A stretch of DNA of 64,000 nucleotides. Source: Eledone cirrhosa. Lineage: Eukaryota. The translations under genes were made by a program, and so were the position numbers. This document shows positions 13,761 to 47,930 of the stretch, piece after piece. The stretch's first letter is position 1, and each line of letters begins with the position of its first letter. The DNA is taken from NCBI GenBank assembly GCA_964016885.1, contig OZ024756.1:40858001-40922000 (forward strand), read 5' to 3'. The notes under the pieces are model-generated. The model saw only the letters and a list, made by a program, of their open reading frames with translations, made no database searches and was not told where the DNA came from.

Positions 13761-14123
13761 TATACATATTTGTATAAAGCTATGCTTGAAGCGAAATCTT
13801 ATTTCTTTTCTATTATAAGTTGAGCCAACTTATGCAGTTTCATATGCAAATGAGATTAATCACCTCATTTACACAGACAAGAAAACTATTTATTCTCAGC
13901 TGTTTTCAAGTCCAGCAGTTGCAAGCGGTGGGAGGGACTGTCCTGACGAAGGCCAGTCAATGAAATGCATAGACAGTTGTCCCCCTTGCTCCTGGTGGAC
14001 ACCACCAGAGGGCATTAGCCTCGGTATTTGCATAGTTACGGCTTCCTAAAACGGTGTTTCTTTAGAAATACAAAATTTCTATACGTATTTGTATAAAGCT
14101 ATGCTTGAAGCGAAATCTTATTT
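13761..14123 (+). mobile_element. Retrozyme-like non-coding element: 319-bp unit plus a 44-bp terminal direct repeat, containing an HHR
   Basis: tatac(a/g)tatttgtataaagctatgcttgaagcgaaatcttattt at 13761-13804 and 14080-14123; octamer ATGCAAAT at 13844-13851; HHR at 13937-13977. Confidence 0.7.
13937..13977 (+). ncRNA. Type I minimal hammerhead ribozyme (stem II degenerate)
   Basis: ACTGTC-CTGACGA-aggccagtcaat-GAA-ATGCAT-A-GACAGT: perfect 6-bp stem I, CUGANGA and GAAA cores, palindromic stem III, AUA cleavage triplet (cut after 13971). Stem II does not pair well. Confidence 0.75.
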
Positions 14124-14210
14124 ATATATATATATATATATATATATATATATATATATATATATAAAGCAGACGTAAAATGAATGATGATAGATAGATA
14201 GATAGATATA

Positions 14211-15392
14211 TTTCTTTATTAGCTACAAGGGCGCACAAGAAAAGGGGACAATGCAAAGACATATCAGGGATTTTACATACAGTCGTGTAACAAACAATTA
14301 CAACAATCGAAATCCCCAATAGGGGGGAGGTGCCACAAATGGGTTGCTTAATACCCCATCGATAGAACAACCCTCAACTCCAGGAGCGTGTTGTGCAAGT
14401 GCTCCTTTCTTCCTTTTGCTCTCTTCCTCAACCTATAGGCTTATAAACAGAGAAGGCCCAATCACTCGGGCCATTTTCGCTTCATTCACCCACCTTTCAG
14501 TAAATTTACTGGGGTGCAGTGCCTCTCTCTCCACCCTGATTCTCCTTCTAAAGTGATACTTAAAGAAGAGAATCAATTGTTGTCCGGAGAGAAAGGCATC
14601 TGTCCTCTCAACCTTGTCCACCATATAACTTCTTTCACCATAGCCACCGTACAGAGGAAAACCGCCTCTTTCGTTTTTGAAAGAGGCTGGCGGCTTGATC
14701 TTTACTATGGACTCGGCAGTCAACTGGATTTATCCCATACGCGACAGCAGTTGTTCTGCATAGTTCCACAGGTCGGTTACGCCCGGGCAGTGTACAATTG
14801 TGTGCAGGACTGTTTCAATGTCCTGCGCGCATCTTGGACACATCCTCTTGGAAGGATCCCTGCCAGGGCGTCCGTGCCTGTAGATCTTGTAACAAACTGG
14901 TAGAGCTCCTTGGTAGCACTGCCAGGCCAGGGACGTCTGGAAGTTGTCCATAGGTCCCGGGCGGAAAGTCATACCAAACAGACTGGTGAGCTCATCGTCT
15001 TCGACGCCCAGAGTCTCTCTGAGCACGTCGTCGCCCTTGTAACGTACAATCCCTCTATAGAATGTCGAAGTGGAGTCTCCACTGATTGCTGCGCCCGCTT
15101 GCCAGAGGACTGTGAGCGCCTGAGCGCATTCAATGTGCCAGGCGCCCATCGTTTTCGGTCTTTTCTTCACCGAGGACTGCAGCTCCGTCAGCGAGACGAG
15201 CTGTGGGAAAGCCTGTCTCACAAACGGTGCCCACACCGGTTGGGGGTCGGTGAGGAATACCTGGAGATGCCGCAGCCTCAGCGCATGTTTGCGCATCATC
15301 AGCCACGGCATTCCCAGCCCTCCGTTGGAAGGGTGCTGACAGCAGACAGATCTCCACACCAGCGGAGCCTGCTTCTTCCACAGAAACTGGAA
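14211..15392 (-). mobile_element. 5'-truncated Tx1/L1-type LINE (ORF2 C-terminus with zf-RVT zinc finger and 3' UTR) in a (GATA)n tract
   Basis: FQFLWKKQAPLVWRSVCCQHPSNGGLGMP...LAWQCYQGALPV...CPRCAQDIETVLHTIVHCP; stop at 14730 with homology apparently continuing; AATAAA at the 3' end; gatagatagatagatagatata on both flanks. Confidence 0.88.
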
Positions 15393-16069
15393 GATAGATA
15401 GATAGATAGATAGATATAAATCCTAATCATTTCTCAACAACAGCTATATTTGTGCCTAGAGCTGGGATTGTACATTTATTTTCTACATACATCAAACACT
15501 TTACTGTGTTATAGTAGAGAAGAAATACAAATGTTTGGCAATTTAAGTGTTATCTTAATTCATTTTCATTAGAGGCAGCCATATTGTATTAAACTCCAGA
15601 GATTTTATTATTTATATTATTTTATTCTTAAGCAATGTTTTATATAATACATCTTTTATATTCTATAGAATTAACAGTGATTCTTTGTCTGGAAACATTC
15701 TACTATAGTGATATCAAATTTTCTATTTTAACATAAAACATTCTCTGCTATTTTTGACTTTTTTTATTCACCTCTGATTAGAGTTTTTCAATGTTGTGTA
15801 ATTATATTCTTTAGGCATTGACCTGTTTAGCCTTTGTAAACCCTACCACAAGCTCATAGGAGGATAGGTTTATAGTTCAACATATCTGTCAAATGAGTCT
15901 AACTTCGATGAGAGATAACTATTGCATATAGTGCTAACTTTACCTACTGTTCTGCTGTTATACTGACCACAGATGTTGTATCTACTCAACTAGACCATTA
16001 CAATAAACCAGAAACACAGTAACATTCAATTTTATCTCTAACTATCCTTACTATGAAAAACAACTTGGG

Positions 16070-46059: not shown

Positions 46060-46090
46060 CTGGTCGTTAGTATTCATTATTTTTAAAATT
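46060..46090 (-). CDS. Candidate small exon ending ...MNTNDQ, upstream partner of the 33685 IQ exon
   Basis: aaaataATGAATACTAACGACCAG|gtaaga has a strong phase-0 donor. Splicing gives DQMKTTAATKIQ, placing D at the same position as in DPNIHHAATKIQ and DPRAHEAATKIQ. The 5' boundary is uncertain. Confidence 0.5.
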
Positions 46091-47442
46091 CTTACAAACG
46101 TCAATAGATATGTATATGTATATATGTGTGTGTATATGTGTATGTTTTGAAATTCTGGATCTATATACAAACATATACTTATGTATATATACAGAATTCC
46201 ACTTGGGTGTATTGATTAGTCTAACGAAGAACACAGGTACAGTTTTATATAGATATAAATAAATAAATAAATAAATAGATGTGCTTATGAGGAGAGATAG
46301 AAAATTCAAGGTAGAAAAACAATCTTAAGGTTTGGTATAGGTAAATATTTAGGAGGAGCCAGACAATCCCAACTGGCAGCTGTCATTACAGGTAAGACTG
46401 GTCTTGGATGCTTGGAAAAATTTCTAGCAGAAAACGCAATTAACTGACAGAGAACGATGGCAGGTTTAGATGGTTGAACGGGTTGAAATATTACTCCATT
46501 TACAGTTTAGCTAGTTTATATAAACAACTAGCATGTTTCTCAGCAGCAGCAATAACAGCAACAGTTCCAGCAGAAGATGGTAAAAAGAAAGAAAGTGTGT
46601 GAGTAGGTGGAAGTAGGTGTGAGTAGGCGGTAAAGACCATTTATAATAGATAAACACAAACTAACAAAACTAATTGATTACAAGTGAAGCAGCTTCCTTG
46701 AGAGTTAGAGAAGGTACAACAAACATCTCTGATAAGCCTTAGCAAGGATTCTAGAGACCCAACATACGTCAGCAAATACTTATAGGTGAAGCTATTTTCA
46801 GGTGAATGTATATTCTTCTTTCACCAATGCTCACAACACTATTTCCACTTTGGTGAACAGTTGCCATAAAACTTATACACTTATCATCTCAAACATTCTA
46901 AAGACTACAGATATTATTTCACACGTCATTCCATCTATTTTTAACAGAAATAATATCTTTTCTTTAACTCTTCTCCATTATTGAATGTTAGATTTCTATA
47001 GCCCCACCCCTACACCTCTTTCTCTCTCTCTCACCCCGCCTTTCCCTCCCTCTCACACTTTCTGTCTCCCTCTATCTCTCTCTCTCGCCATCAACCCCAC
47101 ACACAGACACAAACAGACAGACACAAACACACAGACACACGTATTCAGTTATCTCCTTTAGATAAATGTGGAAAAGTAATATTCTTTAATCATGCAAGAG
47201 ATGAGAGAGAGATGATAGAGTGAAAGGAGGAGTGAGAGATAGAGAGAGAAAGGGGGAGTAAGAGAGAGAGTTTGAACAAGTGCATTAAGCACAAAACTCC
47301 TGACCATCAAGTTACTACTATAGTCTTGCATCTATAATAAAATGTGTGTGTGTGTGCATATGCATGGATGTGTATATATATATACATACATACAAATAAA
47401 AATATGTACTACACACACACACACACACACATATATATATAT

Positions 47443-47930
47443 ATTGGCAGTAGCACTAACATAGCATTAAGCATAATAAGTATATTATATGAAAGCATAT
47501 ACTATATGTTTATATACAATAAATATTTGGGAGCCTTACTATCAAAGAAAAGATATCTTTTCATCATGAAAATAATCTCCCTCTTTTTCTCTGAAAATGT
47601 CAGATATCTTAGTAGCTGTTGAGAATGCCAGACAGCTGTTTCAAGATTCATTACTCTCTCATCAGTGACATTCACTCAACCCATACTGTAATAAAAAGAA
47701 GACTAGAGCCCCTATAGATTTCAGGTGATGAACATTTGCAGGGTATGCTTATATAGCAAATAGAAAACATCCACTGGAAATGCTCATTTGCATATAGTGA
47801 AAACTTGGTTGGTTATAATTAATTGGCAGTAGCACTAAGATAGCGTTAAGTATAATAGGGGTGTATATGAAAGCCTATAGTATATATGTTTATATACACT
47901 AAATATTTGAGTGTCGCTATCAAAGAAAAA
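47443..47930 (-). mobile_element. Retrozyme-like non-coding element: 379-bp unit plus a diverged terminal direct repeat of about 108 bp, containing an HHR
   Basis: attggcagtagcactaa...ctatcaaagaaaa at 47443-47551 and 47822-47930; octamer at 47786-47793; HHR at 47618-47680. Confidence 0.75.
47618..47680 (-). ncRNA. Type I hammerhead ribozyme with intact core and GUC cleavage site
   Basis: Minus strand GTTGAgtGAATGTCA-CTGATGA-GAGA gtaatgaa TCTT-GAA-ACAGCTGT-C-TGGCATTC-TCAAC: 8-bp stem I with a further extension, 4-bp stem II, palindromic stem III; predicted cut between 47631 and 47630. Confidence 0.88.

Follow-up and report, generated by a model that had tools for sequence, protein, structure and literature searches.

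Retrozyme families of Eledone cirrhosa carry a conserved block matching host snRNA-type promoters just upstream of the hammerhead ribozyme

The DNA analysed here, hereafter the window, is a stretch of 64,000 nucleotides (nt) from Eledone cirrhosa (assembly GCA_964016885.1, contig OZ024756.1, positions 40,858,001 to 40,922,000 of the forward strand; the assembly, to which all genome-wide counts refer, comprises 3.0 Gb and is AT-rich, with 33% GC). It harbours three elements, E1, E2 and E3, that combine a type I hammerhead ribozyme (HHR) with an octamer. The octamers at 13844-13851 (plus strand), 47786-47793 (minus) and 37139-37146 (plus), as well as the ribozyme cores at 13943 (plus), 47665 (minus) and 37023 (minus), lie exactly where an initial annotation of the window had placed them, and all three ribozymes pass the type I hammerhead descriptor. 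The 13-mer reported there as common to E1 and E2 was likewise found, the two elements giving no alignment otherwise (z about +1). The features of E1 and E2, which belong to the families F1 and F2 and include a word resembling a proximal sequence element (PSE), are as follows.

13761..14123, plus strand: E1, F1 retrozyme copy; one 321-322-nt unit plus 43-nt terminal redundancy, with a (TA)n tract at its end
13843..13854, plus strand: E1 octamer 12-mer, TATGCAAATGAG, the same as the proximal element of a host U6 gene and of the RNase MRP gene
13859..13892, plus strand: E1 PSE-like word and TATA position (octamer +15 and octamer +43)
13911..14001, plus strand: E1 type I hammerhead (core 13943-13949, GAAA 13962-13965, palindromic short helix III)
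13977..13988, plus strand: match to the host distal snRNA motif in the 3' strand of E1 helix I, which in a tandem would lie at -259 relative to the predicted start of the following unit
14055..14070, plus strand: TGTTT...AAAYA short hairpin, common to 5 of 7 retrozyme units examined
47443..47932, minus strand: E2, F2 retrozyme copy; one unit of ~375-388 nt plus ~110-nt terminal redundancy
47783..47794, minus strand: E2 distal duplicate octamer 12-mer, the one seen in the initial annotation (family position ~-133)
47748..47756, minus strand: remnant of the F2 proximal octamer (family position -92), removed in this copy by a small deletion
47618..47680, minus strand: E2 type I hammerhead (core 47665-47659, GAAA 47642-47639)

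We consider it probable that E1 and E2 are decayed retrozymes of the kind lacking long terminal repeats (non-LTR retrozymes), with a unit that carries the octamer, a PSE-like word and a TATA box just 5' of a type I HHR. The block would likely be a host-type small nuclear RNA (snRNA) promoter, probably one used by RNA polymerase II (Pol II), and E3 would be the terminal repeat of a Penelope-like element (PLE) whose enzyme likely copies the retrozymes. Among diverged families, the components of the block stand in the same order and orientation and at set distances, and they correspond to those of host snRNA-type promoters.

Both families have non-coding units with terminal redundancy (322 nt and GC 0.43 in F1, 388 nt and GC 0.35 in F2), and both are high-copy and dispersed over many contigs, with 3677 first-look candidates for F1 and 1970 for F2 (40 scored in each case). 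The exact octamer is present in 24/29 best other copies of F1 and in 21/29 of F2. In the window copy of E1 the TATA is mutated, the PSE-like word is a weak fit to the model of U1/U2/U5 promoters, and helix II is broken by a 3-nt deletion; the F1 consensus has the core and three helices. An intact type I core with three helices is found in both the window copy of E2 and the F2 consensus. Transcription of E1 would start at 13917, and ribozyme cuts are predicted after 13971 in E1 and after 47631 in E2. A 41-nt module is duplicated in F2, with octamers at -133 (24/30 copies, at most one mismatch) and at -92 (20/30) relative to the core. Because the window copy has lost its proximal octamer, the family value is -92 rather than -121; the idea of a fixed distance between octamer and HHR holds for several diverged families, the figure for E2 being an accident of the window copy. 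Family F6 (L164, minus strand) displays three consecutive 33-nt octamer modules, at about -155, -122 and -89 before the core. The fourth octamer of the window (14026-14033, minus strand) was set aside as a change private to this copy of E1.

The initial annotation had proposed to check the positional enrichment of the octamer, and this enrichment is evident genome-wide. The pattern of TATGCAAAT followed at 71..100 nt by the core has 37,250 exact matches; the backwards reading of this pattern gives 88 and a flipped octamer 824, many of the listed flipped matches being inversion junctions of the octamer-bearing families. Such counts are driven by copy number and arrays, which lessens their weight for our interpretation, and evenly spaced stretches were therefore sampled. 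In 78 of these (780 kb) the descriptor recovered 41 HHRs, compared with 0-1 in five shuffles. The 170 HHR hits from all loci fall into 24 clusters, six of which were judged by eye to be retrozyme-type (their units being tandem or having terminal redundancy). Five of the six retrozyme-type families found ribozyme-first have an octamer in forward orientation between -80 and -100 (F9 and F10, found octamer-first, are excluded from this count), as do 4/5 when 820 kb of evenly spaced stretches are considered alone. Among the remaining 18 clusters, 16 are without an octamer (at least three of these being false positives), the E3 cluster has it partly reversed and one has two stray hits. Candidate family F8 (L136) was dropped, as it is without an HHR fold. 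In an older, decayed HHR family (L412 and L413; G000:C1:5.9 Mb and 11.9 Mb), some 105-108 nt separate the octamer 12-mer from the core that follows it. A metagenome scan for octamer-core-GAAA, covering 3/64 parts of the collection, gave 116 loci, none of which passes the HHR descriptor. In the 64-kb window the octamer alone is not enriched (4 versus 6.0 expected), nor is the core heptamer alone (37 versus 31.5 expected).

F1, F2 and E3 show no pairwise alignment (z +1 to +2), and the initial annotation had called the element families unrelated. For E1 and E2 this view has to be revised, since they are linked by chains of other families (z 36-52 for F1-F10, 17-18 for F10-F7 and 6-7 for F7-F2 or F10-F2) and are probably distant kin. 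Together with the downstream hairpin present in 5/7 units, a candidate recognition signal for reverse transcriptase (RT), these chains argue that the layout is inherited and conserved rather than convergent, and common descent with retention of the promoter is the simpler explanation. It might be objected that the motif does not act as a promoter but is a passive relic of one ancestor, or else serves as an RNA signal through the structure of the circle or a protein bound to it; similarity chains do connect all the retrozyme families, and the downstream hairpin is shared among them. We regard this as very improbable: the flanks of F1, F2, F4 and F6 have diverged to chance while the 12-mer and the TATA spacing persist, the octamer module has been duplicated in both F2 and F6, and the word equals a host promoter element. 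Tandem arrays with periods of 310, 466 and 456-502 nt exist, long ones being found in the kin families F4, F5 and F7. One locus (L176; G000:C3:55000001-55010000) holds a homogeneous array of the 310-nt F7 unit in two opposite arms, without the octamer.

The host genes provide the standard against which the block can be read. TATGSWAATKAG occurs at -76 to -78, with a TATA at -30, in all five presumed true RNA polymerase III (Pol III) genes (three U6 locus types, the RNase MRP gene and the best U6atac match), and the RNase MRP gene carries the exact 13-mer common to E1 and E2. The position of the octamer at about -77 in Pol III genes makes it a proximal Pol III type-3 element in this genome, not the distal element that the initial annotation had assumed; U6, U6atac and RNase MRP all carry it proximally. 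Five more U6 and five more U6atac matches without the proximal motif were judged pseudogenes by their flanks, an exclusion of ten matches that is partly circular and so counts somewhat against our interpretation; nine of 14 extra U6 loci were left out of the promoter reading (no pattern anchor). None of 14 U1/U2/U5 promoters has the octamer; they carry YCART between -56 and -58, followed after 23-26 nt by a TATA-like box. The host also has a distal TTACYTCCCTT-like motif, situated between about -254 and -288 in 7/7 U1, 4/5 U2 and 3/3 presumed U6 genes and in the MRP gene; at two mismatches it was found in 0/7 U5 genes and not in U6atac. No octamer occurs at -200 to -290 in U1/U2/U5 or presumed true U6 promoters, two octamer-like words having been set aside (a two-mismatch word in a U5 flank and an exact one 274 nt before a presumed U6 pseudogene). 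The U1, U2, U5 and U6 genes form tandem arrays (L091-L114, L195-L204, L393-L400). The Pol II snRNA promoters of this host carry a TATA-like box at -30, whereas textbook vertebrate Pol II snRNA promoters are not known to have such a box.

The distance from octamer to TATA in the retrozymes is 43 nt in F1, 42 in F2 (proximal octamer), 42 in F5, 40 in F6 and 43 in F10, that is 40-43 in all five families with a callable TATA (there is no TATA call in F4 and F9), versus 46-48 in host Pol III genes. At TATA+30, which puts the predicted starts at -8 to -26 relative to the core, four of the five (F1, F5, F6 and F10) have pyrimidine|A, like the starts of U1/U2, and F2 is one base off. Counted from the core, starts are predicted at -26 in F1, about -19 in F2, -8/-16 in F5, -19 in F6 and about -21 in F7. 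A Pol II site model, trained only on the 14 U1/U2/U5 promoters, gives its top score within the expected zone in F5, F6, F7 and F10 (4/8 retrozyme families); among ten other HHR families it does so in none, the expected site ranking 3-63. F7 is octamer-less and yet has U1/U2-type words and the exact host distal motif at -256; an AATT word at about -90 was seen by eye in F7 only. The match to host snRNA-type promoters proposed in the initial annotation is thus upheld by the motifs, but does not extend to E3, which is without the shared layout. A hybrid compact promoter used by Pol II, as for newt satellite 2, appears the more likely reading of the block.

A U6-type (Pol III type 3) promoter would have a different output, namely short ribozyme RNAs running to the first T run, with full units as rare products of leaky read-through. 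The 12-mer is indeed the host Pol III proximal element, missing from 14/14 Pol II snRNA promoters, and the first T4 after the predicted start of F1 is at +211, where genomic copies end. When the block is measured against U6-like Pol III promoters, however, only the 12-mer agrees: the spacing is 40-43 instead of 46-48 and the predicted start is A instead of the host G. Runs of T6-T7 moreover occur within the units of F2, F5 and F6; such runs terminate Pol III, which would thus stop before the next ribozyme, and F7 carries only Pol II-type words. Pol III use has been reported for schistosome HHR repeats (PMC2220036, PMC6765202), but all in all we think Pol III an unlikely polymerase for these elements.

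The 12-mer corresponds to what we take to be a high-affinity Oct/POU2 site. One may ask whether the octamer could be a POU site that aids expression or chromatin opening without being part of a core promoter, the retrozyme RNA coming from read-through, as put forward in a 2020 review (PMC7761336, by the authors of PMC7229834). According to that review, retrozymes do not appear to have promoters, and the same 12-mer is found reversed in part of the PLE repeats; in addition, both the PSE and the TATA word are short, and a genome of 33% GC has many TATA-like words. This explanation nevertheless strikes us as distinctly improbable, given that orientation and spacing are fixed across families past alignment, that YA stands at TATA+30 and that the octamer-less F7 has other host words at host spacing.

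The unit may be organized in a more unusual way. When entire units of F7, F1 and F10 (310, 322 and 343 nt) are compared with the host distal motif, the top match is the 3' strand of helix I; it reaches 19.2, 11.3 and 8.2 bits and is located at -256, -259 and -283, respectively, counted from where the following unit is predicted to start (the background rate per site is 6e-6 for >=17 bits and 1.2e-4 for >=10). The four longer units (F2, F4, F5 and F6; 388-484 nt) have no such match, so the total is 3/7; F7, F1 and F10 are kin, hence the motif may be one event, and F10 is represented by one copy. It is conceivable, if rather doubtful, that retrozymes are self-transcribing, the unit being a circularly permuted snRNA gene with a promoter complete only in tandem; in the 310-343-nt clade, including E1, the 3' strand of helix I would double as the host distal enhancer of the next unit, and the unit length would be held by the enhancer-to-start distance. 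Were this true, the read-through model for animal retrozymes would be overturned and their high tissue-wide expression explained.

The third element of the window is of a different nature. Its features, including a terminal repeat of the type called pseudo-LTR (pLTR), are these.

36922..37210, minus strand: E3, 5'-truncated terminal repeat (pLTR / 5' untranslated region), 97-98% identical to the pLTR ahead of the RT open reading frame (ORF) of L079
37139..37146, plus strand: E3 octamer, reversed with respect to the ribozyme strand, at -123
36967..37031, minus strand: E3 pLTR-type hammerhead (core 37023-37017, GAAA 36986-36983), predicted cut after 36975
37229..37337, plus strand: 3' extension ('tail') of the E3 element, an inverted piece on the 5' side of the insertion

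To judge from the sequence, E3 is the terminal repeat of an autonomous PLE. The repeat is high-copy (1766 first-look candidates, 40 scored), with the exact octamer in 29/29 best other copies, and in L079 it stands in sense, its core about 240 nt ahead of the first ATG of the RT frame. The associated PLE ORF family has 123 scored matches in the genome. One locus, L401, has a 749-amino-acid frame with RT and C-terminal GIY-YIG-type motifs, identified by eye; the atlas neighbours of the ORF (0.96-0.99) carry GIY-YIG, HTH_animal and RVT_1, and no meaningful match to the ORF was found in Pfam or PDB. Eight of 11 PLE loci examined have a repeat with homologous upstream sequence, and among these eight the reversed octamer is exact in two, one base off in two and absent from four. 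The notion of three unrelated families with one architecture consequently fails for E3: with its octamer on the strand opposite to the ribozyme, a PLE ORF downstream and no similarity to the retrozyme families, E3 was rejected as a third retrozyme or sharer of the promoter.

Copy ends bear on how the retrozymes may move. Among 29 copies of F1, with lengths of 349-645, the 3' ends of 24 lie within 15 nt of one point, 15 copies end in (TA)n and eight have an inverted 5' partner; in F2 the ends are more spread, 4/29 being in (TA)n and 8/29 inverted. These ends match the internal priming and AT-rich targeting shown for a PLE of Anolis (PMC11167929). We propose that transcription of a tandem would start 8-26 nt before one core and pass through the promoter of the next unit to the next ribozyme. 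Two cuts would then free a unit-length RNA that holds the promoter sequence and might be circularised, by analogy with coral, mussel and axolotl. As the copy ends suggest, a Penelope RT/endonuclease would prime at a fixed internal site, copy for more than one round and insert the product into AT-rich or (TA)n DNA. Multi-round copying and AT-rich insertion would account for copies that exceed one unit, for the inverted 5' partners and for the arrays. Since only copies with two intact ribozymes could act as sources, the window copies of E1 and E2 are probably dead.

Several observations weigh against parts of this scheme. The block is an exact copy of neither host class, its spacing being 4-5 nt under that of Pol III genes and the octamer being absent from U1/U2/U5 genes. 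The Pol II model ranks the expected site only fourth in F9, fifth in F1, eighth in F2 and 21st in F4, and thus performs weakly for both families of the window as well as for F4. The families, joined as they are by similarity chains, are not independent trials. No sequence similarity links E3 to any retrozyme family (z at most +2), and copies with two cores are scarce (2/29 in F1, 1/29 in F2). Finally, RNA-editing scars show no strand bias in 29 copies each of F1, F2 and E3 (A>G versus T>C 37/59, 188/183 and 23/24), the copies being old and picked by likeness to the window.

The window contains eight further HHR-like motifs, read by eye except for 50668, which came from the descriptor (cores 6330, 6507, 17169, 43613, 50668, 53156, 61095 and 61103), and there is no octamer near any of the eight. 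An Rfam scan of the window returned 97 matches, all simple-repeat noise, with no hammerhead family. The segment 6142-6614 is a perfect palindrome with 193-nt arms; it represents a Penelope-type terminal repeat that shares 82% identity with the E3 family, has cores at 6330 (minus) and 6507 (plus) and is without an octamer. Another family, also octamer-less, forms a back-to-back HHR-like pair at 61040-61160 (cores 61095, minus, and 61103, plus). The motifs at 17169 (plus), 43613 (plus), 53156 (minus) and 50668 (plus) are further HHR-like or decayed ones; those at 43613 and 53156 appear to belong to the same family, and that at 50668 is single-copy among the loci fetched. Long minisatellite arrays occupy 3177-4311, 18047-21090, 28196-31051, 38480-42657, 53891-55866 and 57721-58339, with periods of 57, 33, 23, 48, 31, 21, 36 and 42 nt; the 42-nt array is GC-richer and may be coding.

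Much of this system has counterparts in the literature. Metazoan non-LTR retrozymes are described as non-coding units of about 300-480 nt with a type I HHR and GC <45%, occurring as monomers to long arrays and together with PLEs (PMC7229834), and the families of E1 and E2 share these features, some units here exceeding 400 nt. The main text of that paper (Cervera and de la Pena 2020) describes no promoter (the word occurs twice, both times for T7) and includes no cephalopod. The self-cleaving circular-RNA system moved by a Penelope-like RT that the initial annotation had envisaged gains credence from the abundant autonomous PLE and the Penelope-like insertion marks, but is not new: non-LTR retrozymes, their circles and the PLE proposal are already found in PMC7229834 and 10.64898/2026.07.22.740005. 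The latter (Li, Clavereau and Pollet 2026) treats retrozymes, mostly of vertebrates, as non-autonomous PLE derivatives; retrozyme-PLE co-occurrence and the proposed mobilisation by PLEs are as here, whereas our retrozyme units are dissimilar to the one pLTR tested, and promoter, octamer and snRNA go unmentioned in its main text. [quoted passage not shown] Our search of the literature, which left most subscription papers and supplements outside, met no report of an octamer or snRNA-type promoter in invertebrate retrozymes, and a term search of PMC13652810 returned nothing.

What is new here is the conserved snRNA-type block in retrozymes; the class of element, its Penelope partner and the precedent in the newt were known already. 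The block bears on how animal retrozymes come to be highly transcribed in all tissues, the review cited above assuming no promoter (PMC7761336). With tens of thousands of copies in several families, a predicted start base, three mutable motifs and host genes for comparison, the proposal is directly testable. As a side product, we obtain a first sketch of the U6-type and U1-type promoters of this animal, useful for guide-RNA expression, and the retrozyme unit is a candidate compact circular-RNA cassette.

Two other hammerhead-bearing repeats have promoters of their own. That of the schistosome Sm-alpha/Sj-alpha repeats is said to be tRNA-like, and that of newt satellite 2 reportedly includes an octamer. 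In Sm-alpha/Sj-alpha the promoter lies within the unit, as in the retrozymes described here, and an upstream copy drives the next; the polymerase reported there is Pol III (PMC6765202, PMC2220036), unlike the Pol II favoured here. The direct precedent is newt satellite 2, whose HHR-bearing repeat measures about 330 bp and contains an snRNA-type promoter used by Pol II (cited in PMC2220036 and PMC6765202). The present case differs from it in comprising at least seven diverged families in an invertebrate-type genome and in an octamer that adjoins a PSE-like word and sits where host Pol III genes have theirs; the result would connect the isolated newt case of 1994 to a general design.

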